Positions 1,380 to 17,755 of a DNA stretch of 51,506 nucleotides are shown in pieces. The stretch comes from an uncultured Verrucomicrobiota bacterium (GTDB taxonomy: Bacteria; Verrucomicrobiota; Kiritimatiellia; RFP12; UBA3636): positions 1 to 51,506 of the forward strand of contig CAMNCG010000002.1 of assembly GCA_946534105.1 (NCBI GenBank), written 5' to 3'. The notes below the pieces were generated by a model. The model was not told the origin of the DNA and made no database searches. It saw nothing but the letters and a program-made list of their open reading frames with translations. Numbering within the stretch: position 1 is the stretch's first letter; the number at the start of each line of letters is the position of its first letter. The translations under genes and the position numbers were made by a program.

Positions 1380-1492
1380 TGGTCGGGCTCCGAAACCCGA
1401 AAGCCCCCGCCCCTCGCTCCGCAAATAATCAAAAAAAGATATAATTCCCGCCACGACTCGCCGTAGACTATGTCAAAACCATACCAAACATA

Positions 1493-2101
1493 ATGACCAA
1501 GTGGAACATGTCAACACAAAACACTCTCGAGAAGTTGCATTTCATTGCGCTTCTTTTTGTTTCAACGACGGTCTTGCTCTGTTTAGGGTGTGCTAGCCCG
1601 AATCGGTATCGCGAATCTTTGACAGATTATGGATTCGGATTAGGTAAATTTTCTGGAAACATAACGGTAATCCCGTCACAGCGACTCCAAAAGATGACTA
1701 TTGAAGAATGGTCTGGCACAAATGGATTCACAATTGTCGGTCACTCCTTTTTTTCCAACAGTCAGCAGTCAGAATTCGACGCAGTAGATGTCGCAAAAAG
1801 TATCGGAGCTACGCACATAATCCTTTTTCGACAATACCTCTATACCTATGAGCACGATGAAATGCGAACAGGATATGATGTAGGAACATCAACAACAGTC
1901 ACATCCTTTTCGGGACAGGCAAATACATACGGAAACATATATTCTCCGTACAATTATGGTAGTGTCAATTACTCGCAAGCAACGTACGGAAGTGGCTCGG
2001 CAACCTCAACGACAACTACATACACACCATACCATTACCAAGTTCACGTTTCGACTCCGATTTTTGAACATAAAGCCTATTATCTCGTAATAAACAAGTA
2101 A
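1493..2101 (+). CDS. hypothetical probable lipoprotein, S/T/Y/G-rich C-terminus
   Basis: ATG start in an AT-rich block. The N-terminus FIALLFVSTTVLLCLGCASP looks like a signal peptide with a lipobox-like LGC. I recognise no family. Confidence 0.55.
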   Translation: MTKWNMSTQNTLEKLHFIALLFVSTTVLLCLGCASPNRYRESLTDYGFGLGKFSGNITVIPSQRLQKMTIEEWSGTNGFTIVGHSFFSNSQQSEFDAVDVAKSIGATHIILFRQYLYTYEHDEMRTGYDVGTSTTVTSFSGQANTYGNIYSPYNYGSVNYSQATYGSGSATSTTTTYTPYHYQVHVSTPIFEHKAYYLVINK

Positions 2102-2111
2102 GGACCAGACC

Positions 2112-2720
2112 ATGAAACGATTCTTTTTTTCTCTCTTCGTAGCATTCTTCGCTAGTGGTTGTTATTCGACAAGGGTATTAATGCCTATGTCCAATGCTGA
2201 ATCAACCAGCATTCTCGATCGTCACGTTTGCGCGACCAACAAACCTACTCTATCAATAGCCGTTACACGAGAACCCTTCACGGAGGTTGTCAATTCAGAC
2301 ATTCCGCAGACATTGGCAAAAAAACTCGCCAACATTTTTCATGAAACACAATTATTCAGTCGGATTTCAACCGGAAAAGAATCCGTAGAATCGGATTACA
2401 TCTTAAGTGTCATTATTTCGGAGCGTGAATATGATATCATGGAGTATTTCGGAGCATTTGCTCTGACAATTGGACTTTGCCCTATCCCAAGGTGGGGTTA
2501 CAATGCATCTTACACAATGAACTTGGATCATGCCGGTTGCTCTTGGAATTCTGCGGCGCTTTACGAAAGAACAACTTGGATAGGCTTGCCTAACATTATA
2601 TTGGCACCAATTGTCGATCCATTCTGCACCAGACCAACAAGTAGAAGCATTCTAACTTCGATGATCAAAGACATTCAGTTCCAAGGAGGCTTTGACGATT
2701 TGCATATGGATGTTAAGTAA
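2112..2720 (+). CDS. hypothetical lipoprotein
   Basis: Starts 10 nt after the previous stop, with AAGGA upstream. MKRFFFSLFVAFFASGCYS is a signal peptide plus lipobox (ASGC). I recognise no family. Confidence 0.6.
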   Translation: MKRFFFSLFVAFFASGCYSTRVLMPMSNAESTSILDRHVCATNKPTLSIAVTREPFTEVVNSDIPQTLAKKLANIFHETQLFSRISTGKESVESDYILSVIISEREYDIMEYFGAFALTIGLCPIPRWGYNASYTMNLDHAGCSWNSAALYERTTWIGLPNIILAPIVDPFCTRPTSRSILTSMIKDIQFQGGFDDLHMDVK

Positions 2721-2893
2721 CGGGCAAGTAAGCAATGAAAACCGTAGCGGAAAACTGACTGGCCTCTATTCCGTCCCGATATCCTTTACTTCTTTGCCGA
2801 AAACAGAAAAGCCCCAGAAACCACTACTACGTTAAACAAGACTTGAGAGAATCGAGATAAGATACAACACTTCAAATTTCAAGGTCGTTTTTC

Positions 2894-3436
2894 ATGAACA
2901 TCACGCGAACTCCATTTGTTCTAGTTTTCCTGTATTACTTTAACGATTTCCCGTTTGAATTTCTCATTATGGGATACACATTGCTATCATGCATTTTCCT
3001 TGAAGCCGATTCCAGAATCTTCTTCTTTTTCATTCCCGTAATATGGCTTACTGTCGTAGTCGTTTCAATGATCGTCCGATTGTCACCAAGGAGAAAAGAA
3101 CCCAGGTATTTTGATTTTCGTGAAATTTCGAAATTCGATCTCCACGCACACCAGTATGCCGACGGGACGGGAGATCCTTGCATTCGGATAAGCACCACAA
3201 TTGATTCTTTCAGCACGATAACGCTAAAGGACGAGGTAAAAACAGTTGAATTTCGCATATACTCATTTCCTGATTTTGAAAAGTACTTTGATGATATCGA
3301 AAATGCTCTAGGCAGAATTCTCCGATCCATTCCGTTATATAAAAGTTCTGCCACAATTTCAGTAGGTGAGTCTCTAACGCAATGGTCAATTCCCCGCCGA
3401 TATCGAACCAGATGGGGAGTCGTCGAAGTTGTGTGA
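2894..3436 (+). CDS. hypothetical membrane protein
   Basis: Two hydrophobic helices near the N-terminus (FVLVFLYYF..., FFFFIPVIWLTVVVVSMIV) are followed by a soluble-looking domain. The antisense ORF 2935..3483 looks less protein-like. Confidence 0.45.
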   Translation: MNITRTPFVLVFLYYFNDFPFEFLIMGYTLLSCIFLEADSRIFFFFIPVIWLTVVVVSMIVRLSPRRKEPRYFDFREISKFDLHAHQYADGTGDPCIRISTTIDSFSTITLKDEVKTVEFRIYSFPDFEKYFDDIENALGRILRSIPLYKSSATISVGESLTQWSIPRRYRTRWGVVEVV

Positions 3437-3667
3437 TGTTCATCTTCGGAAGTGAGGCCTGATAGAAAACGCCGAGCCACCACAAATCAAGCATTCATTA
3501 AACGACGTTACCACTCTTGTTCAAATCAATGGCATCCCATACTACAAGACACACCACTAAGCCCGGCACCGATTCGAAAACCATCGTAGATCAAGTCTCT
3601 CGCACGACCATTTTGCTAAAGACGAAATAACGAACTTTGCGTCTCAAACATCTTGGCAACCACAATC

Positions 3668-4471
3668 ATGGAAATCATTCTTCAAATTCTTATCGTGATT
3701 GGCGGAGGTATTGTATGCTTTTTCTGGATCCGTCCAGCCGACAAAAAACTTCAACAACTTCAATCAAATCTTCAACGACAAACAGATGCTATGAATTCTG
3801 TTCGCACAGCTATCATGGATGCCAGTGTTGGACTCCAAATCGAACATCACAGGACTCTTGTCAAAGAACATTTACTCGTTTTTCGCGCTTTTCATAAAGT
3901 GTATTCCTCTTCAGGAATTCTTAAATGGGGAGAATCACTCAATGATTTGGCCGAAATCAAACGAAATAATCCACCTTCTCCAGGATTAAAAGCGTTTTCC
4001 AATACTATTTCACAATTGCTTCCTGACAATTGGATGAAAGACTCAATTTTCCAAGAAGTGTCAGAAGCAGAGCTATTTGTTTCAGATAAGATTTGGAAAT
4101 TGTTTGTATTCGGGAAAACGCTTTTATCTCTTTTCCAACTTCAACTTAGAGAGCTTGGACTTGATTCGACACATTCCCTTGTCAAGACAGACGACGTCAA
4201 GAAAACTCTTTCTCAATTGTTTCCCGAAGACATTGATTTGTTCGATAAATTTGGTACCAGCTATTACTACAAGCTAATCACCAAAATCCGATACGAACTT
4301 GTGAAGGAAATCAAATCCGTAATCAATCAAACGCCACTTGATTCAAAACCGTTGTCGAATTTGAACACAATGGTCGAAAGAATTGCCTTTGAGCAAGAAA
4401 CAAATGAATTTCCGCCAATCCCAGATTTTGCCAAAAGGGAATCAAAAGTAACTCCACAAGCCACTACCTAA
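3668..4471 (+). CDS. hypothetical N-terminally membrane-anchored protein, immediately upstream of the AbiH-like gene
   Basis: The ATG at 3668 (MEIILQILIVIGGGIVCFFWI = one TM helix) is preferred over the TTG at 3653. The stop lies 13 nt before the ATG at 4485. I recognise no family. Confidence 0.55.
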   Translation: MEIILQILIVIGGGIVCFFWIRPADKKLQQLQSNLQRQTDAMNSVRTAIMDASVGLQIEHHRTLVKEHLLVFRAFHKVYSSSGILKWGESLNDLAEIKRNNPPSPGLKAFSNTISQLLPDNWMKDSIFQEVSEAELFVSDKIWKLFVFGKTLLSLFQLQLRELGLDSTHSLVKTDDVKKTLSQLFPEDIDLFDKFGTSYYYKLITKIRYELVKEIKSVINQTPLDSKPLSNLNTMVERIAFEQETNEFPPIPDFAKRESKVTPQATT

Positions 4472-4484
4472 ATAGGAGATTGGC

Positions 4485-6023
4485 ATGATTATCGAATCCG
4501 GAAAGAACAACAACCAGAAAGACCGCGCAGTCATTACATTCCTCATTGGGAATGGCTTTGACATCGGACTGGGGCTGAACACCAGTTACAAAGACTTTCT
4601 CTCTACATATCTGAAGCAACCATCAAAGACAAAGGTTGTCGAAAAACTGAAGCAGACAATATCAAGCGACATAAGTCTTTGGGGAGACGCTGAACTTGCT
4701 TTTGGAAAACTTCGCTTTTCTTCACTAGGAACAGAGTCCTTTTCCGTCGTTTCGGATTGTCTGCAGGATTTCAACACAGCTCTTTCGGAATACTTGCAAA
4801 AGGAAGAAAAACGATTCGTTTCGCCAAGTGAAGAACTTCAACGTTCTTTCTGTTCTGGATTGTGTTCGTATTATCTAGTGTTAGGAGATTATCCAACACG
4901 AAACGAACTGCGACGATTGACCCGATTCAACAACCTAAAGGTCAATATAGTTAATTTCAATTATACTGAAACAATTGACAAATTGCTGCCTCCATCTGGA
5001 ACGATTGTTCTTCCAAAATGGGGAAATGTTCATGTTCAAATAAACGACATTTGCCATGTTCACGGAGCATTATCTGTAGGACAATCAAGATTGTTTGGCG
5101 TCAATACGGTAGCACAAGTGGAAGATGAGGACCTTTCCAGCGACTCAAAAGCGATGCTCGTCAAGCCGGAAGTTGATCGCTTGGCGCGATTCGGATTGGA
5201 ACCGATGGCGAAAGATATGATTGACGAAAGCGATACTGTAATATTGTTTGGATTGTCATTGGGAGCCTCAGACCAACTTTGGTGGGACTATCTGCTAGAC
5301 TATATTCAGTACAAACCAGAACATCGCCTGTGCCTAATGCAGCATGTAAAAACAACTCGAAGTTCGCGACTGCCCGGTGAAGAAGGATTGTGGGCACAAC
5401 ACGAATGTCAGCGTTTTTATGATGCGATTGATCCGCAAAAGAGGCGCTATATCGACACCAAAGCTCTCGATCGTCGCATTTATGTTTCCACTCGCGGACC
5501 ACATCACGACCCAGATGGACAAGAAGCATTTTGCGATCCGTTCCACTTAGCTTGGTTCGGCAAGAAATTGGTTACAGGGTATAATTCAACGACTGTCACA
5601 TCATCCCGGGGAGTGGCGTTATCGAAAATTCTTGAATCTAAAGGAAACTCTTACTGTTCGCCAGAAGCAAGAGGGACCTTTACGTTCGACTATTCGAATA
5701 ACAATGGAGAATACGCCATTGGAGAGGGCGATGCGATGTTTCGAACCCGTTGGTCAAAAGCAAGTAACACGTCTATTCATGCATACAAGGACGGCAAGGG
5801 CATTGTCGCAATAGCTCTTCTGAAGAACGCCGGAGAGATCGAGCGTATACACACTATCGATGGCGATTTTTCTTCTAGGGTCAGGACTCCGCGAATTGGC
5901 GACGCAATTGTTTGGAAAAATGAAAAGGACAGGTACGCCATCACGAAAATCGTTTCAATAAAAGATGACACTCGGGGTGACGATCATGATAGTTTGACAT
6001 GTGACTACCTTGTCTTTGGATAA
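4485..6023 (+). CDS. AbiH-like abortive-infection protein with about 140-aa extra C-terminal domain
   Basis: AGGAGA lies 7 nt upstream of the ATG. The N-terminus ITFLIGNGFDIGLGLNTSYKDFLSTYL matches the hallmark AbiH (PF14253) start (IIGNGFDL..GL.TSY.DF). At 512 aa it is much longer than the roughly 300-aa family members I recall. Confidence 0.75.
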   Translation: MIIESGKNNNQKDRAVITFLIGNGFDIGLGLNTSYKDFLSTYLKQPSKTKVVEKLKQTISSDISLWGDAELAFGKLRFSSLGTESFSVVSDCLQDFNTALSEYLQKEEKRFVSPSEELQRSFCSGLCSYYLVLGDYPTRNELRRLTRFNNLKVNIVNFNYTETIDKLLPPSGTIVLPKWGNVHVQINDICHVHGALSVGQSRLFGVNTVAQVEDEDLSSDSKAMLVKPEVDRLARFGLEPMAKDMIDESDTVILFGLSLGASDQLWWDYLLDYIQYKPEHRLCLMQHVKTTRSSRLPGEEGLWAQHECQRFYDAIDPQKRRYIDTKALDRRIYVSTRGPHHDPDGQEAFCDPFHLAWFGKKLVTGYNSTTVTSSRGVALSKILESKGNSYCSPEARGTFTFDYSNNNGEYAIGEGDAMFRTRWSKASNTSIHAYKDGKGIVAIALLKNAGEIERIHTIDGDFSSRVRTPRIGDAIVWKNEKDRYAITKIVSIKDDTRGDDHDSLTCDYLVFG

Positions 6024-6088
6024 ATGCTGATCATTTCCATTCCCTGCGTCCCTTCCATGATTCTCCCCTAAACACCAATACCCCTCTT

Positions 6089-6120
6089 CGCGCGGGCGCG
6101 GCGCAGCCGCCGCCCGCGCG
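6089..6120. repeat. GC-rich REP-like hairpin, copy 1
   Basis: cgcgcgggcg-cggc-gca-gccg(c)-cgcccgcgcg forms a 14-bp stem with one bulged C and a GCA loop. The same architecture recurs at six more intergenic sites in the window. Confidence 0.8.
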
Positions 6121-6200
6121 CCCTCCTCACCGTGTCCCCCCGCTCCTCCCTCCATCGCCCTTCCCCCGCCAGCGCATCCGCGCCGCCCGCGGCCGCGCCG
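6121..6200 (+). repeat. leader repeat, copy 1 (contains the GTG start and first ~23 codons of the Fic gene)
   Basis: The motif ..tcctcaccgtgtccccccgctcctccctccatcgcccttcccccgccagcgc..ccgcccgcgg.. recurs at 7931, 9616 and 11832, always directly after a REP-like hairpin and 5' of a plus-strand gene. Confidence 0.75.
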
Positions 6201-7298
6201 TCCCCGCTCTCCGAGTATCTCGTTGCCAAGGAGCCCGGCCGCCGCGAGCGCGCGGAGAACTGGCGCGTCGCGATCGGGCTGCAGAAGGTCGACGGCCTCG
6301 AGGTCTCGCCGTATCTCGTCAAGACCGCCCGGCGCAACATCGAAGGAGAAATATCCGCCGAGGACGCCCGACGCATTGTCCGACAATACTACGAGGAGAA
6401 ACCACCCGGGGCCGATCCCGAGGCTCACGGAGAGGCGGACCACACTTCGACGAACATCAACGCCATCCTCGCCGAGCCCGCGTTCCGCCTCTCCCCCGAA
6501 TACTACCTCGGCCTCCACCGCCGCATCTTCGCGGGCGTGTTCCCCTTCGCCGGGAAACTCCGCACCGTCAACCTCACGAAGAAGGAATGGGTGCTCGACG
6601 GCGAGACCGTCCACTACACGCCCTTCACCGAAATCGCCGCCTCGCTCGACTGGGACTTCCGGAACGAGCGAGAGTATCGCTATCCAGCGCGCGACAAGGC
6701 CGCGCTCGTCGCCCACTTCGCCGCGTTCGTCTCCGGGCTCTGGCAGATCCATCCCTTCCGCGAAGGCAACACCCGCACCGCCGCCGTCTTCGCCGCCAAG
6801 TACCTCCGCGAACTCCGCTTCAAGAACGTCTCCAACGAGCCCTTCGCCGAACACGCCTGGTTCTTCCGCAACGCGCTCGTCCGCGCCAACTACGAAGACC
6901 TTGCGCATGGCATCGAACGCACCACCGCTCCCCTCGAGGCCTTCTTCCGCAACATCCTCCTCGGCGAAAGGAACGAACTCAAGAACCGCTATCTCCATAT
7001 CCGCGCCGCGGAGTTAGGCTTGGTTGCGCCGATCGGCGCAACCAAGCCGGATGTCACAATAAATGTCACAATAAACGACACAATACAACTGACGGACATC
7101 GAACGGAAGATTGCGGCGATTCTACGGAAAACACCGACAACGACACGTGCGGAACTGTCCGTGGAATCGGGATTGAGTTCCCGCCAGATCCAACGCATCC
7201 TCGACTCCCTCAAAACCAAGATGGGCCTTCGCCGCGTCGGCTCGCGCAAGACCGGCCGCTGGGAGTTCCCGCCCCACCCCCGCCACATAATCCACTAA
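6132..7298 (+). CDS. Fic-family protein (HPFREGNTR core) with N-terminal VbhA-like segment and C-terminal winged-helix domain
   Basis: The Fic motif HPFxxGNxR is present as HPFREGNTRT. The N-terminal NWRVAIGLQKVDGLEVSPYLVKTARRNIEGEIS resembles the antitoxin-like module fused to some Fic proteins (from memory). The C-terminal ...SSRQIQRILDSLKTKMGLRRVGSRKTGRWEF is wHTH-like. GTG at 6132 is the only in-frame start. Confidence 0.8.
   Translation: MSPRSSLHRPSPASASAPPAAAPSPLSEYLVAKEPGRRERAENWRVAIGLQKVDGLEVSPYLVKTARRNIEGEISAEDARRIVRQYYEEKPPGADPEAHGEADHTSTNINAILAEPAFRLSPEYYLGLHRRIFAGVFPFAGKLRTVNLTKKEWVLDGETVHYTPFTEIAASLDWDFRNEREYRYPARDKAALVAHFAAFVSGLWQIHPFREGNTRTAAVFAAKYLRELRFKNVSNEPFAEHAWFFRNALVRANYEDLAHGIERTTAPLEAFFRNILLGERNELKNRYLHIRAAELGLVAPIGATKPDVTINVTINDTIQLTDIERKIAAILRKTPTTTRAELSVESGLSSRQIQRILDSLKTKMGLRRVGSRKTGRWEFPPHPRHIIH
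7051..7086 (+). repeat. 3 x 12-nt in-frame tandem repeat (atgtcacaataa) in the Fic linker
   Basis: The units are atgtcacaataa / atgtcacaataa / acgacacaatac. They encode (D)VTINVTINDTI just before the C-terminal wHTH and form an AT-rich patch in a GC-rich gene. Confidence 0.85.
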
Positions 7299-7306
7299 CC
7301 CGCACC

Positions 7307-7335
7307 TCGCGGGCGCGGCGCAGCCGCGCCCGCGA
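7307..7335. repeat. GC-rich REP-like hairpin, copy 2
   Basis: tcgcgggcgcggc-gca-gccgcgcccgcga is a perfect 13-bp stem with a GCA loop, lying between the Fic stop (7298) and the RhuM-like ATG (7349). Confidence 0.85.
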
Positions 7336-7348
7336 CAAAGCGCCCTCC

Positions 7349-7885
7349 ATGAAACCGCCTTCCCACACTCCTTCCGAAACGCCCGTCGCCCTCTACCGGA
7401 CCGAGGACGGCACCGTCCGCGTCTCTGCGCTTGTCCAAGACGAAACCCTGTGGCTCACGCAAGTCGCGATGGCCGTCCTGTTTGACTGTTCGCCCGAAAA
7501 CGTCATCCAGCACCTGAAGAACATATTCGGCGACGGAGAACTCGACGAATCGGCAACTGCTAAGGATTTCTTAGTAGTTCGACAAGAGGGAAAACGCAAG
7601 GTCTCCCGCACGCTCAAGCACTACAACCTCGACGCCATCATCGCCGTCGGCTACCGGGTGAATTCCCGTCGCGCGACGCAATTCCGCATCTGGGCCACGA
7701 AGAGCGTCAACGAGTTCATCGCCTTCCGCCGCTACCAGGTTCTTCCCGACAACGCGCGCGGCAAGGTCGCGCGCGTCGACGCCGAAGACCGCGCCCTCGG
7801 CGAATACGAGATCTTCAACCGCACCCAGCGCATCGACTCCGACTTCGACAAGCTCGTCCGTGCGTCCTCCCACCCCGCCACATAA
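7349..7885 (+). CDS. RhuM-family protein (short form)
   Basis: VALYRTEDGTVRVSALVQDETLWLTQVAMAVLFDCSPENVIQHLKNIFGDGELDESATAKDFLVVRQEGKRKVSRTLKHYNLDAIIAVGYRVNSRRATQFRIWAT matches the RhuM N-terminal pattern I remember (...ETVWLTQ.QMA.LF......I..HI.NIF.EGEL......K.F.......GK.....YNLD.IISVGYRV.S..GT.FR.WAT). I start it at ATG 7349 and do not use the 432-aa ORF-track extension. Confidence 0.8.
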   Translation: MKPPSHTPSETPVALYRTEDGTVRVSALVQDETLWLTQVAMAVLFDCSPENVIQHLKNIFGDGELDESATAKDFLVVRQEGKRKVSRTLKHYNLDAIIAVGYRVNSRRATQFRIWATKSVNEFIAFRRYQVLPDNARGKVARVDAEDRALGEYEIFNRTQRIDSDFDKLVRASSHPAT

Positions 7886-7903
7886 CCCACTAGCCTGCTC
7901 CGC

Positions 7904-7928
7904 GCGGGAGCGGCGAGCCGCCGCCCGC
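7904..7928. repeat. GC-rich REP-like hairpin, copy 3 (imperfect)
   Basis: gcgggagcggcgagccgccgcccgc forms a 5-bp outer stem plus a 4-bp inner stem. It is identical to the copy at 11799-11823. Confidence 0.7.
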
Positions 7929-7930
7929 AT

Positions 7931-8012
7931 TCACTCCTCACCGTGTCCCCCCGCTCCTCCCTCCATCGCCCTTCCCCCGCCGGCGCGGCCGCACCGCCCG
8001 CGGAAGCGCCGG
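7931..8012 (+). repeat. leader repeat, copy 2 (contains the GTG of a 64-codon upstream ORF, 7943..8137)
   Basis: tcactcctcaccgtgtccccccgctcctccctccatcgcccttcccccgccggcgcggccgcaccgcccgcgg is nearly identical to 6121-6200. Confidence 0.75.
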
Positions 8013-8133
8013 TGCCTTTCTCTGAAGTCCGGCTCTCGGTCAGCGCCCACTACGCCAGGCAACCGAAATTCCCCACCCCTAGCCCCTCCCCTCCGCGCGG
8101 GCGTGGCGACGATTCGCCCAAAGGATTCTTAAC

Positions 8134-9540
8134 ATGAAGAAGTCTGAATCGCACAATGTCGAATACAAGCGAAGCTGGCACGACGAGTACCTGCGTTGGG
8201 TCTGCGGCTTCGCCAACGCGAAGGGCGGAACGATTTGGATCGGCATCGACGACGACAGGAGCATCGTCGGCGTCGCAAACGCCAAGAAGCTGATGGAGGA
8301 CGTTCCGAACAAAATCAAGGACACGATGGGGCTCGTGGTGGACGTTTCACTTGTAAGAAAGCGGCAAAAGGACATTGTCCGAATCGATGTCCCGGAAAGC
8401 GACTTTCCCGTGGCATACCATGGCGAGTACCATTATCGGACAGGATCGACAAAACAATTGCTGACAGGTTTCGCCCTCACGCAGTTTCTCTTCCACAAAA
8501 TGCACCTTTCGTGGGATTCCGTCGAGACCGTCAACAAATTGCGCGTCCGGGATTTCACGTTCAAACGCCTTCGATACCGTTTCGACGAGAGAATCCACAA
8601 AACGGTCACGGCGGCGGATTTCGTCTCTTTCGGACTGGCCACAAAATCCGGCGTTTTGACGAATGCGGGAGCCCTGTTGACGGATGACTGTCCGATTCCG
8701 CAATCCCGCCTTTTCTGCACGAGGTGGCTTGGCCTTGACAAATCGGCGGATTCCGCGGCCAGCCGCAAGGAGCACGGAAACCTTCTCGAACTGCTGGATC
8801 TGGCGGAAAGCTTCATCCGCACCCAGACGAACAGAGGTTGGATCAAGCGTCCGACCGAACGAGACAACTTCCCCGATTATCCCGAGCGGGCCGTGACCGA
8901 AGCTGTCGTCAATGCGCTCATCCACCGGGACTACACGATGTCGGGCAGCGAAGTTCACATCGATATTTTCGACGACCGCATTGAAGTGACTTCGCCCGGA
9001 GGCATGCCGGATGGTTCGCTTGTCCAGGATTTGGACATCATGAACATTGCGTCCGACAGGCGGAACGGCATTCTCGCAGACGTGTTCGACAGGCTCGATT
9101 ACATGGAGCGGGAGGGAAGCGGATTCAAGAAGATCGTCGCAGCATATACGGGCAAAATGGCCCGCAATCCATTGGGCGTCCGACCGGCATTTTACTCCTC
9201 CGTCGGCAGTTTTACGGTCACGTTGCCGAACCTGAACGGGCCTCGCGAGGCCGCAATCGAAAGAACCAACGGGCTTGCAGATGCCGGTGGTGGCGGCAAT
9301 CCTGTCGGCAATGTCGGTAATTCTGTCGGTAATGTCGGTAATCGTGTTTCCGGCGAAACTGACCTTGAACATCTAGTCCTTGAATGTCTGCGCGGCGACG
9401 CCAAGATGTCGGCGGCGAAGATTGCAAAACGAGCCAAAGTGACGACCCGAACGATCGAGCGCGTCTTTGTGAGGCTTCGGACTTCCGGGCACATTCTTCG
9501 TAAAGGCGGGACGCGTGGATCCTGGGAAGTCCGCGACTGA
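8134..9540 (+). CDS. AlbA_2 (Schlafen-like) / HATPase_c_4 / wHTH protein ('putative DNA-binding, divergent AAA' regulator family)
   Basis: The N-terminus SESHNVEYKRSW..EYLRWVCGFANAKGGTIWIGIDDD..IVGV is the AlbA_2 signature. The middle ...AVTEAVVNALIHRDY...GSEVHIDIFDDRIEVTSPGG is HATPase_c_4-like. The C-terminal MSAAKIAKRAKVTTRTIERVFVRLRTSGHILRKGGTRGSWEV is a wHTH. Confidence 0.8.
   Translation: MKKSESHNVEYKRSWHDEYLRWVCGFANAKGGTIWIGIDDDRSIVGVANAKKLMEDVPNKIKDTMGLVVDVSLVRKRQKDIVRIDVPESDFPVAYHGEYHYRTGSTKQLLTGFALTQFLFHKMHLSWDSVETVNKLRVRDFTFKRLRYRFDERIHKTVTAADFVSFGLATKSGVLTNAGALLTDDCPIPQSRLFCTRWLGLDKSADSAASRKEHGNLLELLDLAESFIRTQTNRGWIKRPTERDNFPDYPERAVTEAVVNALIHRDYTMSGSEVHIDIFDDRIEVTSPGGMPDGSLVQDLDIMNIASDRRNGILADVFDRLDYMEREGSGFKKIVAAYTGKMARNPLGVRPAFYSSVGSFTVTLPNLNGPREAAIERTNGLADAGGGGNPVGNVGNSVGNVGNRVSGETDLEHLVLECLRGDAKMSAAKIAKRAKVTTRTIERVFVRLRTSGHILRKGGTRGSWEVRD
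9298..9350 (+). repeat. in-frame tandem repeat aat(nnn)gtcgg(c/t) x4-5 in the linker
   Basis: The units are aatcctgtcggc aatgtcggt aattctgtcggt aatgtcggt aatcgtgtt. They encode NPVGNVGNSVGNVGNRV immediately before the C-terminal wHTH. Confidence 0.85.
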
Positions 9541-9615
9541 CGAAGATCAAAATGCCCGACAAGTTCAAGCCCCTTCCGCCCCTCGAGCGCGGCGAAGCCG
9601 CCCCGCATGCACTAG

Positions 9616-9692
9616 TCACTCTCACCGTGAACCCCCGCTCCTCCATCCATCGCCCTTCCCCCACGGGCGCGGCCGCGCCGCCCGCCGCGCCG
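9616..9692 (+). repeat. leader repeat, copy 3 (diverged)
   Basis: tcactctcaccgtgaacccccgctcctccatccatcgcccttcccccacgggcgcggccgcgccgcccgcc aligns with the other copies. A GTG at 9627 opens a 29-codon ORF ending at TGA 9714-9716. Confidence 0.65.
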
Positions 9693-9741
9693 CCCGCAGA
9701 CCTCGTCGCTGAATGAAACCGATGAAAACCCGCAAGGTCCA
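9675..9741. repeat. 67-nt conserved intergenic motif, copy 1
   Basis: gcgccgcccgccgcgccgcccgcagacctcgtcgctgaatgaaaccgatgaaaacccgcaaggtcca aligns without gaps to 12843-12909, with about 10 mismatches by eye. Confidence 0.7.
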
Positions 9742-9802
9742 TGTCGAAATCGACCTCTCCGCTCCCGTCACGCCCACCACCCCCTGACCCACGACCCGCC
9801 TC

Positions 9803-9827
9803 GCGGGCGCGCCGCCGCTGCGCCCGC
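9803..9827. repeat. GC-rich hairpin (REP-like variant)
   Basis: gcgggcgc-gccgccgct-gcgcccgc is a perfect 8-bp stem, preceded by the same cctcgcggg context as other copies. Confidence 0.6.
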
Positions 9828-9882
9828 ACGACCTCACACCTCCCACCTCTCCCGACATCCAGTCCTTCCTCGTTTTCATGCA

Positions 9883-11781
9883 ATGAAACAAATCGTCCTT
9901 GAATGCAAGTGCCGCACGTTCAAAAGCGAACGAACCATCGTCATCCCCCCCCTCTGGACGGCACGGCCGCTCCACCGCGCCCTGCAGAAGGCGTTTGGCT
10001 GGGAAAACGATCATGCTTTCTGGTTCAAAAGGTCACCAACCGTCTTTTGTTCCGGAAATCCAGTGGACAACACCGAATCACGAGGCGTTTCGTTCGCCGA
10101 TCCGCTGGAGCGACTCTTTCCCGAAATCGGCTCGCGGCTGCTCTACGTCTATGACGGCGGGGACGAAAACGAAGTCGTACTCGTGCGACGCGAGGATGCG
10201 GAAGGAGACAAGCCAGCCTGCCTCTCGGCGTCCGGGCTCATGGCCGTCGAGGATTCGTCGCAGTACGGATATGTCGATGGGATTGCGGACGATGTCCGCA
10301 AATCGATGGCGGACGGCCACTGGGACCGAATTCCCGAGGAATTTGAAATCGGAAGCCGTGCGGATGCCGAGGCGTGGCTCCGCGATAGGGAGCCCGATCT
10401 CGCGTCCATATCACGCGACCTCGCAAAAATCCCCTTCCGACCGGAATCGGACTGTTACGATCCTCCCGAACGGAATGAAATGCCTTTCTTCCGCGGTTTT
10501 CCTGGACTGGACCGGAACGACGACGAAGAAATCCTCGACGGGAAAGACGTATCCGACGAAATCTTTCTGGCGAATGCCCCGCGTCTTCCTCCGGATCCCG
10601 TTCCGCTGGCCGAACTCGCGCACCGTGCAGAAGCGGGAGATCGCGCCGCGCTGGTCGAACTTGCCGACCGTTCGGTGCGCTATCTCCACTCCGACGCCGA
10701 CGAATGCCGCGATCTCCCGGTAATCCTGCGCGGGCTCTTCCGCGCCGTCGCCGAAGGGGACGTCGCGGCCAAGGCATCCGCCGGAAGACTGCTCGTCAGC
10801 GCCTACATGGTTCCGGCGCGGGCGCGCTTGCGGGGATGGCTGCTCCTGCGGGAAGCCGCAGACGCCGGCATCGCCGCCGCATGGGACGCGCTTGGACGGC
10901 AGGCCCTCGACTGGATTCTCGTCGACGGCTCCTACTCCGAACTGGAGAAGATCGAGCCGGACCGTTCCCTGTTGCCCAGATTCGACGACTTGAAGGATTT
11001 CGCCGTGTCCTGTTTCCGGAACGCCGTCGAAAACGGCTGCCCATCCGGATGGAACGGCCTCTTCTGGGCTGCGGAGGAAGGAATCGGGACTCCGTCGGGA
11101 AATCGGGATCCCGGCTTTGCCCTCGAATGCGCGCTCAAAGGCGCGGAAGCGGGTGATTCGCACTCCAGCTTCCACGCCGGCTTCAAACTCCTCGACTCGC
11201 AGGACGGAACGGACGAGGACATCCTTTCCTGTCACAAACGCGGACTGGAACTGGTGCTGCAAGGAGCGGAAGCCGCCGCCCCGGACATGGACGACGCCAT
11301 CGAACTGGCGAACCGGATGGACGATTGGCGGAAATTCGGACGGGTTGCGGACCATTCCGTTTCCGCACGCCGGTGCGACGCCGCCATGGCGCGCATCAAC
11401 CAGATCGATAACGACTTTTCCGGACGCAGATCCAGCGAAGTCGAGGAGGAGAACCGGAAACTCCGCAATGCGTGGATCAACGCATTCTCCGTCCTCAACA
11501 ACGGTCCCGATCCGGCGCTGGAAGAAGGCAGACGACTGCTCTCGCTCCCGGACGCCACGCCGAAGCAGTTGCGCGAAGGATTCCGCCTCGTCCGCGAGTC
11601 GGCCGAAAGGAACGGCTCGGCGGCCGTTTGGCGGGAACTGGCGTCCTGCTATGAAACCGGGCGAGGCATTTACCGCAACAAGAACCGCGCGCGCGACTGC
11701 ATCAAGAACGCGGAACGTGTCGAAGCCCGCCTGGCCGCCGCCGCGGCTTTCGCGGCCTCCCCACCGGAATCCGACTCGTAA
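9883..11781 (+). CDS. MM3350-like (pRiA4b ORF-3 family) N-terminal domain fused to Sel1/TPR-like repeats
   Basis: The N-terminus ...PLHRALQKAFGWENDHAFWF...LLYVYDGGDENEVVLV follows the PF07929 pattern (LH..IQ.AMGW.D.HLH.F ... F.Y.YDFGD.W.H.I). The C-terminal part has Sel1-like units (e.g. LASCYETGRGIYRNKNRARDCIKNA). Confidence 0.6.
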   Translation: MKQIVLECKCRTFKSERTIVIPPLWTARPLHRALQKAFGWENDHAFWFKRSPTVFCSGNPVDNTESRGVSFADPLERLFPEIGSRLLYVYDGGDENEVVLVRREDAEGDKPACLSASGLMAVEDSSQYGYVDGIADDVRKSMADGHWDRIPEEFEIGSRADAEAWLRDREPDLASISRDLAKIPFRPESDCYDPPERNEMPFFRGFPGLDRNDDEEILDGKDVSDEIFLANAPRLPPDPVPLAELAHRAEAGDRAALVELADRSVRYLHSDADECRDLPVILRGLFRAVAEGDVAAKASAGRLLVSAYMVPARARLRGWLLLREAADAGIAAAWDALGRQALDWILVDGSYSELEKIEPDRSLLPRFDDLKDFAVSCFRNAVENGCPSGWNGLFWAAEEGIGTPSGNRDPGFALECALKGAEAGDSHSSFHAGFKLLDSQDGTDEDILSCHKRGLELVLQGAEAAAPDMDDAIELANRMDDWRKFGRVADHSVSARRCDAAMARINQIDNDFSGRRSSEVEEENRKLRNAWINAFSVLNNGPDPALEEGRRLLSLPDATPKQLREGFRLVRESAERNGSAAVWRELASCYETGRGIYRNKNRARDCIKNAERVEARLAAAAAFAASPPESDS

Positions 11782-11798
11782 CAACCCGGCTCATCCGC

Positions 11799-11823
11799 GC
11801 GGGAGCGGCGAGCCGCCGCCCGC
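11799..11823. repeat. GC-rich REP-like hairpin, copy 4
   Basis: Identical 25-mer to 7904-7928. Confidence 0.7.
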
Positions 11824-11831
11824 CCCAACCC

Positions 11832-11928
11832 TTCACTCTTCACTCTTCACTCCTCACCGTGCTCCCCCTATCCTCCCTCCATCGCCCTTCCCCCGCCGGC
11901 GCATCCGTGCCGCCCGCGGCCGCGCCGT
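11832..11928 (+). repeat. leader repeat, copy 4 (with 3 x ttcactc at its 5' edge; contains the GTG start of the core-less Fic paralogue)
   Basis: ttcactcttcactcttcactcctcaccgtgctccccctatcctccctccatcgcccttcccccgccggcgcatccgtgccgcccgcgg aligns with the other copies. Confidence 0.75.
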
Positions 11929-12614
11929 CGCCGCTCTCCGAGTATCTCGTTGCCAAGGAACCCGGCCGCCGCGAGCGCGCGGAGAACTGGCGCGTCGCGA
12001 TCGGGCTGCAGAAGGTCGACGGCCTCGAGGTCTCGCCGTATCTCGTCAAGACCGCCCGGCGCAACATCGAAGGAGAAATATCCGCCGAGGACGCCCGACG
12101 CATTGTCCGACAATACTACGAGGAGAAACCACCCGGGGCCGATCCCGAGGCTCACGGAGAGGCGGACCACACTTCGACGAACATCAACGCCATCCTCGCC
12201 GAGCCCGCGTTCCGCCTCTCGCCCGAGTACTACATCGGCCTCCACCGCCGTATCTTCGCGGGCGTGTTCCCCTTCGCCGGAAAACTCCGCACCGTCAATC
12301 TCACGAAGAAGGAATGGGTGCTCGGCTTGGTCGCACCGCCCGCAAGCGGTGTGAACAAGCCGGATGTCACAAATCATGTCGGGATAAATGTCGGGATAAA
12401 TGTCGGGATAAAACTCTCCCCACAAGAGCAACGCGCGAAGGACCTTCTCGTTGCCGATCCGACACTATCCGCCCCGAAACTCGGCGCTCGGCTGGGCGTC
12501 ACCGGACGCCAGGCCGAGCGCATCGTTTCCTCCCTCAAAACCAAGTCTGGCCTTCGCCGCGTCGGCTCCCGCAAGACCGGCCGCTGGGAGTTCCCGTCCC
12601 ACCCGGCCACCTAG
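11859..12614 (+). CDS. Fic paralogue lacking the Fic catalytic core (VbhA-like N-terminus + repeat linker + wHTH only)
   Basis: The first about 155 codons are almost identical to 6132..6597. After KEWVL the sequence jumps in frame to GLVAP..., which in the full-length copy follows ...AAEL at about 7013. No HPFxxGNxR motif remains, and the reading frame is intact. Confidence 0.75.
   Translation: MLPLSSLHRPSPAGASVPPAAAPSPLSEYLVAKEPGRRERAENWRVAIGLQKVDGLEVSPYLVKTARRNIEGEISAEDARRIVRQYYEEKPPGADPEAHGEADHTSTNINAILAEPAFRLSPEYYIGLHRRIFAGVFPFAGKLRTVNLTKKEWVLGLVAPPASGVNKPDVTNHVGINVGINVGIKLSPQEQRAKDLLVADPTLSAPKLGARLGVTGRQAERIVSSLKTKSGLRRVGSRKTGRWEFPSHPAT
12364..12411 (+). repeat. 4 x 12-nt in-frame tandem repeat (atgtcgggataa)
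   Basis: The units are atgtcacaaatc / atgtcgggataa x3. They encode DVTNHVGINVGINVGI just before the wHTH domain. Confidence 0.9.
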
Positions 12615-12671
12615 ATTCCGACATGACCAAGCACGCCACCCATCTGACCCCCTAGCCCAAGCCTGCTCCGC

Positions 12672-12697
12672 GCGGGCGCGGCGCGGCCGCCGTCCGC
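12672..12697. repeat. GC-rich REP-like hairpin, copy 5
   Basis: gcgggcgcggc-gcg-gccg(c)cgtccgc has the same stem / bulged-C / triloop architecture as copy 1, with one G-T pair. Confidence 0.7.
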
Positions 12698-12842
12698 AGC
12701 GGAATCCCGAATCCCGCCGTCCTGTCCACCCCGCGCTGGTTGTTCGACGGAAAACTCGTACCGGCGGCGCCGGTCGTCGTCGCCGAAGAGGAGCCCGGCG
12801 GCGCCTCCTCCTCGCCCCGCCGTCCGCCCCGTTCCGAGCGAC

Positions 12843-12909
12843 GCGCCGCCCGCCGCGCTTCCCGCAGGTTCCGTCGCTGAATAAAACCGAAACGAACCCG
12901 CAAGGTCCA
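12843..12909. repeat. 67-nt conserved intergenic motif, copy 2
   Basis: gcgccgcccgccgcgcttcccgcaggttccgtcgctgaataaaaccgaaacgaacccgcaaggtcca ends 19 nt before the ATG at 12929. Confidence 0.7.
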
Positions 12910-12928
12910 CAACCGCGCGACACGCGCC

Positions 12929-13561
12929 ATGAAACTTGCCGTTCTCTCCGATCTCCACGGTTACATCCCCTCGCCCGCCGCGCAGGCGATTGTCGACAAG
13001 GCCGACATCATCTGCATCTGCGGCGACATCCAGAGCCGAGCGATGCACTCCTTCGCGTGGATCAACGCGCAGAGGAAACCCGTAATCCTCGTCCCGGGAA
13101 ACCACGACTGGTTCCTCTTTGATCCCGCCGGCGCGGCCTCCAACTGGGGATTCGGTCCGCACGTCCGCGTCCTGATCGACGGCGGCTGCGAACTGGACGG
13201 CGTCCGCTTCTGGGGAACGCCGTGGTCGCCGATCTTCTTCGACTGGGCGTTCATGCTCCCGCCCGGCGACCTCCGCGAAAAATACGCGAAGATCCCCGAA
13301 GGGATCGACGTTCTGCTCGCCCATTCCCCGCCGCGAATCCCGCGCAGCCGCATCGACATGGTGGAAGGCCGCCGCGACCATTGCGGCTCGGCCGAACTCG
13401 CCGAAGCCGTCCTCCGCGCCCAACCCCGCCACCTCTTCTGCGGCCACATCCACACCGGCGACCACACCCCCGTCCGCCTCGGCTCCTCCCTCTGCCGCAA
13501 CGTCTCCTACCTCAATGAGCAGTACGCCCCCGCCTTCCTTCCCGCCACGCTCGTAATCTGA
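12929..13561 (+). CDS. metallophosphoesterase (calcineurin-like)
   Basis: The ordered motifs of the family are present: LSDLHG, CGDI, VPGNHD, LLAHSPP, GSAEL and CGHIHTG. Confidence 0.8.
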   Translation: MKLAVLSDLHGYIPSPAAQAIVDKADIICICGDIQSRAMHSFAWINAQRKPVILVPGNHDWFLFDPAGAASNWGFGPHVRVLIDGGCELDGVRFWGTPWSPIFFDWAFMLPPGDLREKYAKIPEGIDVLLAHSPPRIPRSRIDMVEGRRDHCGSAELAEAVLRAQPRHLFCGHIHTGDHTPVRLGSSLCRNVSYLNEQYAPAFLPATLVI

Positions 13562-15440: not shown

Positions 15441-15977
15441 ATGACCCATCTCGTGTCCGAGAACCCCGTCGCGCAGGCGGTGGGCTTCGTGGCGCTCGGC
15501 GTCACGGTGCTGAGCTACCAGGCCCGCACGACGCGCGGGATCGCCCTGCGACAGGCGGCCGGCAACTTCTTCTGGACGACGCATCTGCTGCTTCTGGGCG
15601 CATGGACTGGCGGCCTGCTCAACGCCCTTGGGCTCGCCCGCGGCGCGGTCTACTCGCAGCGCGGCGCCCGCGCGTGGGCTTCGCGTCCGTTCTGGCCGTG
15701 GCTTTTCAGCGCGCTCTGCGTCGGCGCCGCCGCGTTCGCCGGGCTCTCGCAGGGCGAGGGACCGCGGCTTCTGCTCTCCGCGACCGCACAGTGCATCGGC
15801 TGCTACGCGCTCTGGACGCCCCGCGTCCGCCGCGCCCGGCTCCTGCTGCTCCTCGTCAGCCTCCTCTGGCTCGCCTACGACGCCCTCTCCGGCTCCCTCC
15901 CAGGAACCGCCTGCGAGCTCTTCAGCGAAGCCTCGATCCTCCTGGCCATCGCCCGCGACCGCCGCGCGCGCCGCTAG
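15441..15977 (+). CDS. YgjV-family inner membrane protein
   Basis: The protein is multi-TM, with an N-terminus ...NPVAQAVGFVALGVTVLSYQARTTRGIALRQAAGNFFWTTHLLLLGAWTG typical of YgjV-like proteins (from memory). Confidence 0.6.
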   Translation: MTHLVSENPVAQAVGFVALGVTVLSYQARTTRGIALRQAAGNFFWTTHLLLLGAWTGGLLNALGLARGAVYSQRGARAWASRPFWPWLFSALCVGAAAFAGLSQGEGPRLLLSATAQCIGCYALWTPRVRRARLLLLLVSLLWLAYDALSGSLPGTACELFSEASILLAIARDRRARR

Positions 15978-16514: not shown

Positions 16515-17561
16515 TCACGGTGCTGCTCCGGAAACAATCGCGAACTGCCCGGCCCGGTCACAATCGCAGGCGAACTGGGGCTGCGCCTTGAGGATGGTCG
16601 TCCAGTCGTTGCCATTCAGCTTCCGCCAATCGCATCGGGCGGCGAACTCCGGTCGCCCTGCGATCACGTTCGCCCAGTCGTGGCGACTGAGCGTTCGTGC
16701 GTCGCATCGGTCCACGAACTGCGGCTGCCAGGCCAGCAATGCGCGCCAATCCTCCTTTCCGATCTTTTCCCAGTCGCATCGGTCGGCGAACTGCGGCTGG
16801 TGCGAAAGAAGGAGCGTCCATTCGGAACCGCCGAATTCGCTCCAGAGGCCGCATCGATCCGCCAGTTCCGGTTGCCGGGCCAGCATCCACGCCCATTGCC
16901 GGCGGTCGAATTCTTCCCACTTGTCGCACCGGCCGGCGAACTGCGGCTGTTTTTGGAGCAGGAAGTGCCAGTCCTGCGCGGACAGTTCCGTCCACTTGTC
17001 GCATCGGTCGGCAAACTGCGGCTGCCTGCACAGGACATTCGCCCAGTTGGACGCATCGAACCGGTTCCGGAAGTTCAGTCGGTCGGCGAACTGCGGCAGG
17101 AACGAAACGACCCGCTCCACATCGAATGCCGAGCACGCGATCGTCTGTCGCGCGAACTTGCTTTCCTTGCGCATCAGCGCCGACAGTAGGCGTCCGAGCC
17201 CGCTTCGTTCCGTCTTTCTCCAGTCGCATCGGTCGGTCAACTGCGGAGAATCCATCAGAAGGCAGCACCAGTTCTCTCCGGAGATCTTCGACCAGTCGCA
17301 TCGGTCCGCGAAACGAAGGTCCTCACGTAAAAGAGACATCCAGTCGTTGCGGGCGAGCCTCGACCAGTTGCACCGGCCGGCGAACTGCGGCTGCCTCCCG
17401 AGAAGCCAGGCCCAGCACACTCCGTCCATCTCGCCCCACTTGTCGCACCGATCGGCGAATCGCGGCTGCGCGGCGAGCAGTTCGGCCCAGTTCCTTCCGG
17501 AAAGCGTCACCCAGCCGAGTCCGGTCGTGGGCCGGATCGTTTTGGATTCAAGTGTTTTCAT
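16515..17561 (-). CDS. tandem-repeat protein, about 12 units of a 24-25-aa W-x2-LL-x2-QPQFA-x-RCDW repeat (family not recognised)
   Basis: Representative units are WAELLAAQPRFADRCDKWGEMDGVC, WAWLLGRQPQFAGRCNWSRLARND, WMSLLREDLRFADRCDWSKISGEN, ... WTTILKAQPQFACDCD. One central unit is degenerate. The ATG at 17561 forms an ATGA overlap with the upstream small ORF. Confidence 0.7.
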   Translation of the reverse strand: MKTLESKTIRPTTGLGWVTLSGRNWAELLAAQPRFADRCDKWGEMDGVCWAWLLGRQPQFAGRCNWSRLARNDWMSLLREDLRFADRCDWSKISGENWCCLLMDSPQLTDRCDWRKTERSGLGRLLSALMRKESKFARQTIACSAFDVERVVSFLPQFADRLNFRNRFDASNWANVLCRQPQFADRCDKWTELSAQDWHFLLQKQPQFAGRCDKWEEFDRRQWAWMLARQPELADRCGLWSEFGGSEWTLLLSHQPQFADRCDWEKIGKEDWRALLAWQPQFVDRCDARTLSRHDWANVIAGRPEFAARCDWRKLNGNDWTTILKAQPQFACDCDRAGQFAIVSGAAP

Positions 17562-17755
17562 CTGCCCCCAGAACGGTTGCGACGGTTTCCGCCGAAAGGA
17601 AGACGCTTGAAAACTGGCCATACTGCCGAACGGTCCCGGCCGCCGCTCACGGCGGTCGTGCGGGTCTTGAGCAGGTTGTCCAAGAAGCGGAGCGCGTGCT
17701 TCGCTTCGAACTGGAGTGTGGGATGGATGGGATGCAGGGAGGTTTTCGTTTCCAT
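17558..17755 (-). CDS. 65-aa ORF whose first ~39 aa are paralogous to the N-terminus of the 28592..29407 protein
   Basis: METKTSLHPIHPTLQFEAKHALRFLDNLLKTRTTAVSGG aligns with MNTAPSIHPIHPTLQFEARHALRFLDNLLRTRTTSVSGG, and the rest is unrelated. Its stop overlaps the next ATG. It may be a duplicated 5' gene fragment rather than a functional protein. Confidence 0.4.
   Translation of the reverse strand: METKTSLHPIHPTLQFEAKHALRFLDNLLKTRTTAVSGGRDRSAVWPVFKRLPFGGNRRNRSGGR

Follow-up and report, generated by a model that had tools for sequence, protein, structure and literature searches.

We found that the co-directional gene array between positions 6,089 and 12,909 of a 51,506-nt stretch of DNA from an uncultured Verrucomicrobiota bacterium (GenBank assembly GCA_946534105.1, contig CAMNCG010000002.1; the whole 51.5-kb stretch is called the window) is probably a recombining, partly decayed cluster of toxin-like defence genes, made mosaic by homologous and microhomology recombination rather than by a dedicated cassette system. 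The cluster comprises Fic (PADLOC candidate PDC-S72), RhuM (PDC-S05), AlbA_2, PRiA4_ORF3-Sel1 and metallophosphoesterase genes, and lies downstream of gyrB in a rumen Kiritimatiellae bacterium. The sequence-only reading from which we started had described every gene as bounded by a stereotyped GC-rich hairpin and a leader repeat, and had proposed that these boundaries repeatedly captured or shuffled gene cassettes. We read positions 5800–13200 directly, applied repeat finding to the whole window and compared the array with related loci in other genomes and metagenome contigs (numbered with the prefix L). Pfam agrees with the gene families named by that reading (Fic, RhuM-like, AlbA_2, MM3350-Sel1 and core-less Fic).

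The comparison of gene presence and order that had been called for shows that the array is not syntenic across relatives. In the window, the array is part of a defence island that starts right after gyrB (182–553) and continues through McrBC, GmrSD and KAP NTPase genes to an EamA gene at 32274. Related loci run gyrB, HNH, Dcm, Abi_C, Fic, a 137-aa open reading frame (ORF), Phd/Doc and EamA (L138); gyrB, AlbA_2, PRiA4_ORF3, TPR, Mrr, metallophosphoesterase, Fic, hairpin and GNAT (L139); gyrB, HARE-Mrr, a VbhA-only ORF, hairpin, EamA, metallophosphoesterase, hairpin and RhuM (L001); gyrB, GmrSD, hairpin and metallophosphoesterase (L074); or mini-Fic, MM3350-Sel1, a Fic stub and a full RhuM gene (L004). 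Relatives and co-occurring strains thus carry the same modules reordered, with breakpoints in the hairpin, leader and gene-end repeats, and the proposal that the boundaries are recombination joints was borne out.

The MM3350-Sel1 gene illustrates this reordering, with an identical protein present in at least four different neighbourhoods. Its upstream neighbour is AlbA_2 (window and L131), DUF6880 with 161-aa and 57-aa ORFs (L129 and L130) or mini-Fic (L004), and downstream it is followed by core-less Fic (window and L132), AlbA_2 (L134) or a Fic stub and a full RhuM gene (L004). Compared to L004, the identities are themselves mosaic: MM3350-Sel1 is 98.5% identical, while the flanking modules, the full RhuM among them, are 84–91% identical. 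In the window, PRiA4_ORF3 (MM3350) and TPR/Sel1 form one 632-aa fusion (9883–11781); L139 and L140 encode the two parts in neighbouring genes of their own, 213 and 522 aa long (L139 5293–7731). The EamA gene is 98% identical to its L001 and L138 copies, compared to only 91–93% for the 3′ end of gyrB, and these sequences suggest a recent gene-sized exchange. The high-identity segment at the EamA-like ORF (32274–32711) matches the ORF boundaries.

Joints were also found within Logan contigs from four rumen metagenomes (6118>9728, 7327>11829, 7881>9729 and 7280>12707), all of which end in or beside repeat modules. One backward joint, 11838>7930, likewise at repeat modules, would be explained if the 3.9-kb AlbA_2-MM3350 unit were tandemly duplicated or circular; the direct repeats formed by the third and fifth hairpins (H3 and H5) with their leaders bound this unit. 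The positions of the joints relative to the hairpin are variable, and longer independent contigs (L004, L129 and L134) support real variation. In the proposed mechanism, direct repeats of 30–150 nt (the hairpin modules, together with both ends of the paralogs of Fic, RhuM and the small ORFs), recurring every 1–2 kb in a non-essential island, would undergo RecA-type recombination that leads to deletions, duplications and reordering. Occasional microhomology joins, such as the one at GCGCCGCCCGC (9674), would contribute as well. The leader stubs at two sites (7916 and 9600) are what deletions have left.

We found that the leader is not an independent boundary element, as had been supposed, but the 5′ end of a Fic gene. 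It spans about 110 nt and occurs in four copies (6105, 7916, 9600 and 11832), with 69–85% identity over 110 nt (repeat family D3). These four copies stand, while the claim that leader and hairpin bound every gene does not: leaders are present at only 4 of 7 junctions, and two of them are simply the 5′ ends of Fic ORFs, whose first 300 nt (6123–6422 and 11850–12149) are 97% identical (D1). The leader is assigned to Fic coding sequence because the GTG at 6132 is the sole in-frame start ahead of the VbhA-like region, an independent gene call yields the same 388-aa Fic protein (P0001), L138 has an ATG at the equivalent site (P0005, starting MPRSSIHRPSP) and the leader copies differ by indels that keep the frame (of 21 nt in L003, of 15 nt in P0004). 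Together, these comparisons show that the leader, by its predicted translation, encodes the N-terminus of a family of Fic paralogs specific to this lineage (PADLOC PDC-S72), from the GTG start through ~27 codons rich in Pro, Ser and Ala. All of the leader copies found in other genomes and metagenome contigs, at least ten, continue into the Fic/VbhA N-terminus (PLSEYLVAKEPGRRERAENWR). A scan for exact matches, with one genome per species, located the 23-nt leader core in four other genomes, all of them Kiritimatiellae or "Verrucomicrobia" metagenome-assembled genomes from ruminant gut. Fic homologues at ~70% identity start with MNPLSEYL and are without the extension. A sigma-70 scan detected no promoter-like site in any leader, and an exact look-up of the 388-aa Fic protein (the same call as P0001) returned no record.

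The shortened leader that had been described at the RhuM start is RhuM's own N-terminus (MKPPSHTPSE), and in relatives the upstream sequence differs (cctcaccATG). We ruled out the RhuM start as a leader copy, given that the RhuM paralogs of L002 and L004 have different upstream sequence. Because the boundaries are what is left of deleted paralogs (Fic, VbhA-only, RhuM and small ORFs), the genes are not captured between conserved boundaries, and the cassette-capture part of the earlier proposal is not supported. The array and its surroundings contain the following features, all on the plus strand where a strand is given.

2–6 kb: region with a GC content of 39–46%.
4485–6023, plus strand: AbiH-like gene (Pfam AbiH, 1.9e-28), the last gene of a low-GC block, upstream of the array.
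6087–6120, plus strand: hairpin H1, a GC stem of 14 bp with a C bulge, 66 nt past the AbiH stop (−30.2 kcal/mol, z −3.05; exact pattern match).
6132–7298, plus strand: intact Fic gene with a VbhA-like N-terminus, the core HPFREGNTRT and C-terminal winged helix-turn-helix (wHTH) variant A; leader copy 1 (repeat 6105–6214) forms its first ~27 codons; Pfam Fic 2.2e-12, VbhA 4.5e-5, PADLOC PDC-S72 7e-112.
7017–7048, plus strand: perfect 32-nt palindrome in the Fic ORF, at the boundary of the core and C-terminal domains.
7278–7335, plus strand: 3′ module and hairpin H2, C-rich, with stops in two frames and a perfect 13-bp stem (−30.3 kcal/mol, z −5.35; repeat family D5).
7349–7885, plus strand: RhuM gene with an in-frame deletion (Pfam RhuM positions 1–56 only; alignment A1 against the full-length L004 and L002 copies).
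7873–7928, plus strand: 3′ module and hairpin H3, a degenerate A-variant identical to H5 (−17.3 kcal/mol, z −0.5; D5, D15).
7943–8137, plus strand: stub ORF of 64 codons, combining leader copy 2 with what remains of the 3′ end of a VbhA-only ORF and with a decayed hairpin (D3, alignment A2).
8134–9540, plus strand: AlbA_2/HATPase_c_4/HTH gene (Pfam).
9585–9787, plus strand: composite remnant with a partial hairpin, leader copy 3 (29-codon stub), the 3′ end of the 161-aa ORF and a 5′ stub of the 137-aa/57-aa ORF (D3, D12).
9797–9827, plus strand: hairpin H4, a variant with a 9-nt loop (−20.6 kcal/mol, z −1.6; D5).
9883–11781, plus strand: PRiA4_ORF3 (MM3350)-Sel1/TPR fusion gene (Pfam).
11795–11858, plus strand: hairpin H5 (11795–11823) followed by three CTTCACT units and CCTCACC, directly before a GTG; the heptad number varies among loci.
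11859–12614, plus strand: core-less Fic gene with leader copy 4, a VbhA-like N-terminal half and wHTH variant B (Pfam VbhA only).
12667–12909, plus strand: hairpin H6 (12667–12702; −29.4 kcal/mol, z −2.6) with remnants of the 161-aa ORF 3′ end and the start of the next ORF (D12).
12929–13561, plus strand: metallophosphoesterase gene (PDC-S10; Pfam, PADLOC), a conserved island gene.
32033–32711, plus strand: Phd/YefM pseudogene (32033–32210), hairpin (32225–32252) and EamA-like gene (32274–32711); EamA lies next to the Fic array in relatives.

The remnants can be traced to intact counterparts elsewhere. Within the 64-codon stub, positions 8024–8108 are homologous to the ends of the VbhA-only ORFs that are intact in L001, L002 and L076, and the stub's TGA overlaps the ATG of AlbA_2 (ATGA). 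In the composite remnant at 9585–9787, the microhomology GCGCCGCCCGC links the leader stub at 9600 to the 3′ end of the 161-aa ORF and to the 5′ stub of the small ORF, which runs from the ATG at 9722 to the TGA at 9787; both ORFs are intact in L129, L130, L002 and L138. The region of H6 and its remnants (12667–12909) is 85% identical to L129 1975–2177.

Several toxin-like genes have lost their cores in frame. The window's RhuM lacks residues 118–282 of 343 (165 aa) and matches positions 1–56 of the 252 in the RhuM profile (PF13310), short of a full-length domain; full-length copies are present in L002 and L004. Compared to P0004, an intact version with the same C-terminus, the core-less Fic is missing ~140 aa that include HPFREGNTRT (alignment A2), and in the 75-aa mini-Fic of L004 and L129 the N-terminus is fused in frame to the last 18 residues. 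The intact Fic scores 48 bits against Pfam Fic (cut-off of 24) and carries a degenerate form of the HxFx(D/E)GNGRxxR-type Fic motif, HPFREGNTRTAA, which is absent from the copy at 11859–12614. The VbhA matches (23.8 and 24.3 bits) fall below the curated cut-off of 25.9, and their RRNIEG has the E-G of the inhibitory-helix motif (S/T)xxxE(G/N) without its S/T. In addition, the hairpin at 32225 is preceded by a frameshifted Phd/YefM antitoxin pseudogene, whose Doc partner, present in L138, is absent. From these alignments we infer that toxin cores have been lost repeatedly, with the start-proximal VbhA-like, putatively antitoxin-like portions and the reading frame retained.

The perfect palindrome at 7017–7048 has an imperfect counterpart at 12320–12360 in the core-less Fic. 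This site coincides with the 3′ joint left by the core deletion and with the point from which wHTH variants A and B differ. Tandem repeats with units of 9–12 nt, AT-rich and in frame (ATGTCACAATAA, ATGTCGGGATAA and TGTCGGTAA), occur at 7049–7085, 12361–12405 and 9290–9345, where they encode VTIN, VGIN or VGN linkers just ahead of the wHTH domains of Fic, core-less Fic and AlbA_2. Therefore, unrelated enzymes share a linker-plus-wHTH tail.

It is possible, though we consider it doubtful, that selection has kept the stubs, with VbhA-like fragments and core-less Fic acting as putative antitoxins or immunity factors in trans and leader ORFs translationally coupling AlbA_2 and other genes. The core deletions of core-less Fic, mini-Fic and RhuM are three independent events that are all in frame, VbhA-only ORFs recur in three loci, the overlap between the stub's TGA and the AlbA_2 ATG is conserved in L134, and a Phd remnant was kept ahead of the 32225 hairpin when Doc was lost. 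Against this stand the sub-threshold VbhA scores and the loss of the VbhA region itself from the second stub (7943–8137; alignment A2). Selection of this kind is also compatible with a decaying, recombining cluster and not exclusive of it.

We identified a related GC-rich hairpin at each of the sites where one had been claimed (6089, 7307, 7901/7904, 9797/9803 as a variant, 11796/11799, 12667/12672 and 32225), using repeat finding, pattern search and folding, and located further copies at 9585 (partial) and near 8087 (~8087–8112, decayed). The pattern CGCGGGNGCGGCGNNGCCGCCNYCCGC has three exact occurrences in the window, plus variants, compared to 0.01 expected from shuffled sequences, and folding placed a bulged C, also noted before, on the hairpin's 3′ arm. 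Only four hairpins are strong (H1, H2, H6 and the 32225 copy; −25 to −30 kcal/mol, z −2.6 to −5.4). The mutually identical copies at 7901 (H3) and 11796 (H5) fold no better than shuffled sequence (z about −0.5), and there is little or no gain over shuffles for the 9797 copy (H4; z −1.6) or for the partial one at 9585 (z −1.0). In all, three of the eight window copies, two of which are full-length, do not exceed shuffled sequence in folding. Hairpin lengths are 26–34 nt, and all of those in the window and related loci are on the gene strand, 9–66 nt past a stop codon, with a C-rich flank.

One type of flank contains stops in two frames (CACATAAYCCACTAR). This two-stop flank encodes the final codons of RhuM, core-less Fic and the relatives' 137-aa ORF (HPAT and the stop), and a one-base difference within it lets Fic read on to the second stop. 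The gene-end modules at 7278–7333 and 7873–7928 are 80% identical (D5), so that the claim of stereotyped 3′ gene ends, with this shared ending, is upheld. The hairpins are GC-rich stem-loops located right after genes, as terminators are, and no copy is followed by a T-run; the T-tailed terminators picked up by a scan with a terminator consensus all lie in other parts of the window (17882 and 19015, for example). Rfam has no match to the hairpins at gathering thresholds or at E≤1, and no tRNA was found as a potential integration site.

The hairpin is not specific to the array. In L048, part of a 105-kb contig, there are three copies in 13 kb: the hairpin separates an AAA_14/DUF4143 gene from an HlyD gene, and a tandem pair precedes an ORF read as an RND pump from its N-terminal sequence. 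Rumen metagenome contigs provide at least seven further 5′ contexts, each with a stop codon near the hairpin; in L074 it lies directly before the metallophosphoesterase gene, and the 5′ flank of H1 is homologous to the hairpin flanks in L003 and L076. Among the matches listed from a metagenome scan with the hairpin pattern, most were chance hits to soil contigs of high GC content, and L048, L074 and L076 alone were related; beyond this lineage the pattern lacks specificity. Viral contigs gave no leader matches and four matches to the hairpin pattern, and there is no sign of a phage origin. The hairpins are a lineage-wide family of T-less GC stem-loops between genes, also found outside such arrays. 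They would act at the RNA level as intercistronic terminators or as stem-loops protecting 3′ ends, forming a REP-like family. Among the RNA runs, which consist of sparse Logan contigs (depth 2–5), the Fic and MM3350 genes are transcribed.

The same hairpins could be repetitive extragenic palindromic (REP) elements, spread by a REP-associated tyrosine transposase (RAYT) and inserted after stop codons in a permissive, non-essential region, with the Fic stubs incidental; we regard this as unlikely. They are short, GC-rich, imperfect and extragenic palindromes just past stop codons, they form a sequence family across several genomes and many contexts, they have no Rfam family and they occur as a tandem pair in L048. 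The label of a REP or bacterial interspersed mosaic element (BIME), previously applied to these boundaries, therefore fits loosely, as an extragenic palindrome family; its remaining defining features are in part missing. The window holds only 7–9 copies in 51.5 kb, all but one within the 7-kb array, and relatives with the same island have 0–1 (none in the 21 kb of L138, one between Fic and the GNAT gene in L139). Compared to single-copy sequence, the depth of hairpin 31-mers is 1.2–4x in three metagenome runs and 54x in the fourth, so that in three of the four it does not reach the hundreds of copies expected from REP elements. Moreover, the hairpins all face the same way with respect to their genes, inverted pairs of the BIME kind are absent, and no RAYT was seen in the window sequence.

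Between the hairpin or stop codon and the next start codon there is a microsatellite of heptads, either (CTTCACT)n or (CACTCGT)n (n = 0–10; window 11831–11858; L138 12355–12420; L001 ~1540–1560, minus strand; L076 ~70–100, minus strand; L003 3166–3190). Its copy number varies among loci upstream of the same gene (EamA or Fic), and its possible roles are those of a spacer prone to slippage or of a pyrimidine-rich translation leader without structure. In rumen metagenomes, pure heptad-repeat 31-mers are 80–110x deeper than single-copy genes. We rejected this depth, observed at 11828–11859, as a measure of leader copy number; it belongs to 31-nt unitigs of pure heptads, possibly from other organisms.

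The array also contains 5 of the window's 11 G-quadruplex (G4) motifs (6136–6167, 7947–7978, 11864–11894, 8071–8091 and 9764–9797), three of which are leader cores; the C-runs are on the plus strand, which places the G4 on the template strand. The motif is lost in copies with C-to-A variants (9646, L002 and L138). The G-quadruplex idea is weakened by the 3–4 of 14 aligned leader copies that are without the motif, and by Pro/Ser codons, which yield C-runs anyway.

We consider it very unlikely that the hairpin module (C-rich two-stop flank and bulged GC stem-loop) is the site of a dedicated single-strand-hairpin cassette exchange, carried out by a recombinase encoded elsewhere. Downstream of each of the co-directional, tightly packed genes there is an imperfect hairpin whose extrahelical C is conserved, gene-sized units are more alike than their neighbours (MM3350-Sel1 and EamA, as given above), several joints lie exactly at the hairpin's 3′ foot (6118, 11823–11829 and 12707) and the module is tandemly duplicated in L048. 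Yet there are no attC R″/R′ cores within 80 nt of any hairpin and no properly spaced pair in the array, the hairpins are 26–34 nt long compared to 57–141 nt for attC, and no integrase, recombinase or transposase was found among the ~46 ORFs scanned with Pfam across the window. The joints are also not fixed (9728/9729 and 6299>12558; upstream of EamA, homology begins only ~6 nt ahead of the ATG), relatives that share the island genes contain no hairpin or a single one, and two hairpin copies have lost stem stability with their sequence still conserved. The statement that the array is not a classical integron was thus correct. A hot-spot version, in which the two-stop flank, bulged hairpin, (CTTCACT)n and G4 leader core would together drive cassette exchange without a classical integrase, appears similarly improbable; it would call for an unknown hairpin-recognising enzyme, or for G4- or hairpin-induced breaks as in Neisseria pilE variation.

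An assembly artefact, with a chimeric contig collapsed or mis-joined at repeats, has a negligible chance of explaining the array: most metagenome contigs with these genes do break at repeats (9729 and 11823), and those with the exact MM3350 protein are mostly 2–5 kb, but independent assemblies tile the junctions (the X6 contig covers 5000–6184 and the X4 contig 7934–11823; L137 matches window positions 6439–9694 at 99.7%, L131 9001–11847 at 99.7% and L132 9678–12220 at 99.96%).

Several points weigh against a cluster shaped by decay and general recombination. The three independent in-frame core deletions, together with the overlap of the stub ORF and AlbA_2, hint at selection for function rather than pure decay. 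Paralogs and species differ very little in the 23-nt leader core, as seen in a scan that recovers exact matches only, and this near-invariance needs gene conversion or some constraint. Short-read contig joints at repeats may be paths in the assembly graph and are suggestive only. A recombinase or RAYT could lie farther off in the genome, outside the searched window. Lastly, the role of the hairpins as terminators or 3′-end elements is putative: one RNA contig stops at 11827, just past H5, and breaks in a k-mer graph would look alike.

Elsewhere in the window, the low-GC block at 1400–6000 (39–46% compared to ~65% elsewhere) contains AbiH, a truncated DUF1016/YhcG nuclease gene at its edge and four ORFs that neither Pfam nor PADLOC recognises; the block was probably acquired recently. 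Between 16600 and 17500, repeats with a period of 72–75 nt (8–9 copies, 64–88% identity) lie within a 465-aa ORF on the minus strand (16515–17912) that has no Pfam match and looks like a repeat protein with units of 24–25 residues. Dispersed pairs of direct repeats (82–90% identity, 103–138 nt) are present at 15445–15553 and 32750–32858, at 29613–29750 and 35388–35525, and at 17640–17742 and 29292–29394.

Together, these observations provide a sequence-level picture of defence-island remodelling in an uncultured rumen lineage, with short direct repeats as joints. Reshuffling by repeat recombination is an ordinary process, encountered here in a setting that had not been described, and our findings leave current ideas standing. 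New here is the T-less intercistronic hairpin family with its adjoining heptad microsatellite in Kiritimatiellae, previously undescribed, which may matter for the annotation of operons and terminators in the phylum.

The array can be compared to several known systems. Integron cassette arrays have attC sites of 57–141 nt with R″ (RYYYAAC) and R′ (GTTRRRY) cores and an IntI integrase, the latter absent from clusters of attC sites lacking integron-integrases (CALINs). Like these, our array consists of accessory and defence genes packed on one strand, in an order that varies among strains, and an imperfect hairpin containing extrahelical bases comes after each gene. Unlike these, it has no attC cores and no IntI in the scanned ORFs, its hairpins are a third to half the length of attC, its joints are unfixed and many of its boundaries are remnants of paralogs. 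The REP and BIME elements of Enterobacteria and Pseudomonas are GC-rich palindromes past stop codons that act as recombination substrates and protect mRNA 3′ ends. The hairpins resemble them as a family of GC-rich imperfect palindromes after stops in co-directional clusters, and differ in their low apparent copy number, single orientation, absence of a conserved GTAG head and of BIME pairing, lack of a RAYT in the window and two degenerate copies.

Orphan arrays of Rhs and CdiA contain tandem, truncated paralogs whose conserved segments are able to recombine with the full-length gene. Truncated tandem paralogs are likewise found here, with wHTH variants A and B in the intact and core-less Fic, respectively. 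In contrast to the orphan modules, it is the 5′ end that is retained, not a 3′ toxin tip, and the proteins are cytoplasmic rather than secreted. Fic proteins reportedly possess an inhibitory helix, which Engel and colleagues are said to have described in 2012, either in class I pairs such as VbhT/VbhA or, in class II, as N-terminal helices. The window's Fic has a VbhA-like RRNIEG segment before the core, and relatives carry free-standing VbhA-only ORFs; differing are the degenerate motif HPFREGNTRT, the VbhA scores below cut-off and the Pro/Ser/Ala-rich N-terminal extension.

A parallel in gene content is offered by the Fic/Doc-RhuM clusters of defence islands (Anantharaman et al. 2013, PMC3710099; PADLOC candidates PDC-S72, PDC-S05 and PDC-S10), where the same families lie beside restriction-type genes (AbiH, Mrr, GmrSD and McrBC) in a hot spot of chromosomal variation. 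A role as a toxin resembling Doc has been proposed for RhuM in restriction-modification loci (PMC3710099), and RhuM occupies the Doc-like position in those clusters and in our array alike. What sets the present array apart from them is its organisation: a tandem array of paralogs with graded in-frame core deletions, 5′ stubs and hairpins shared among the junctions.

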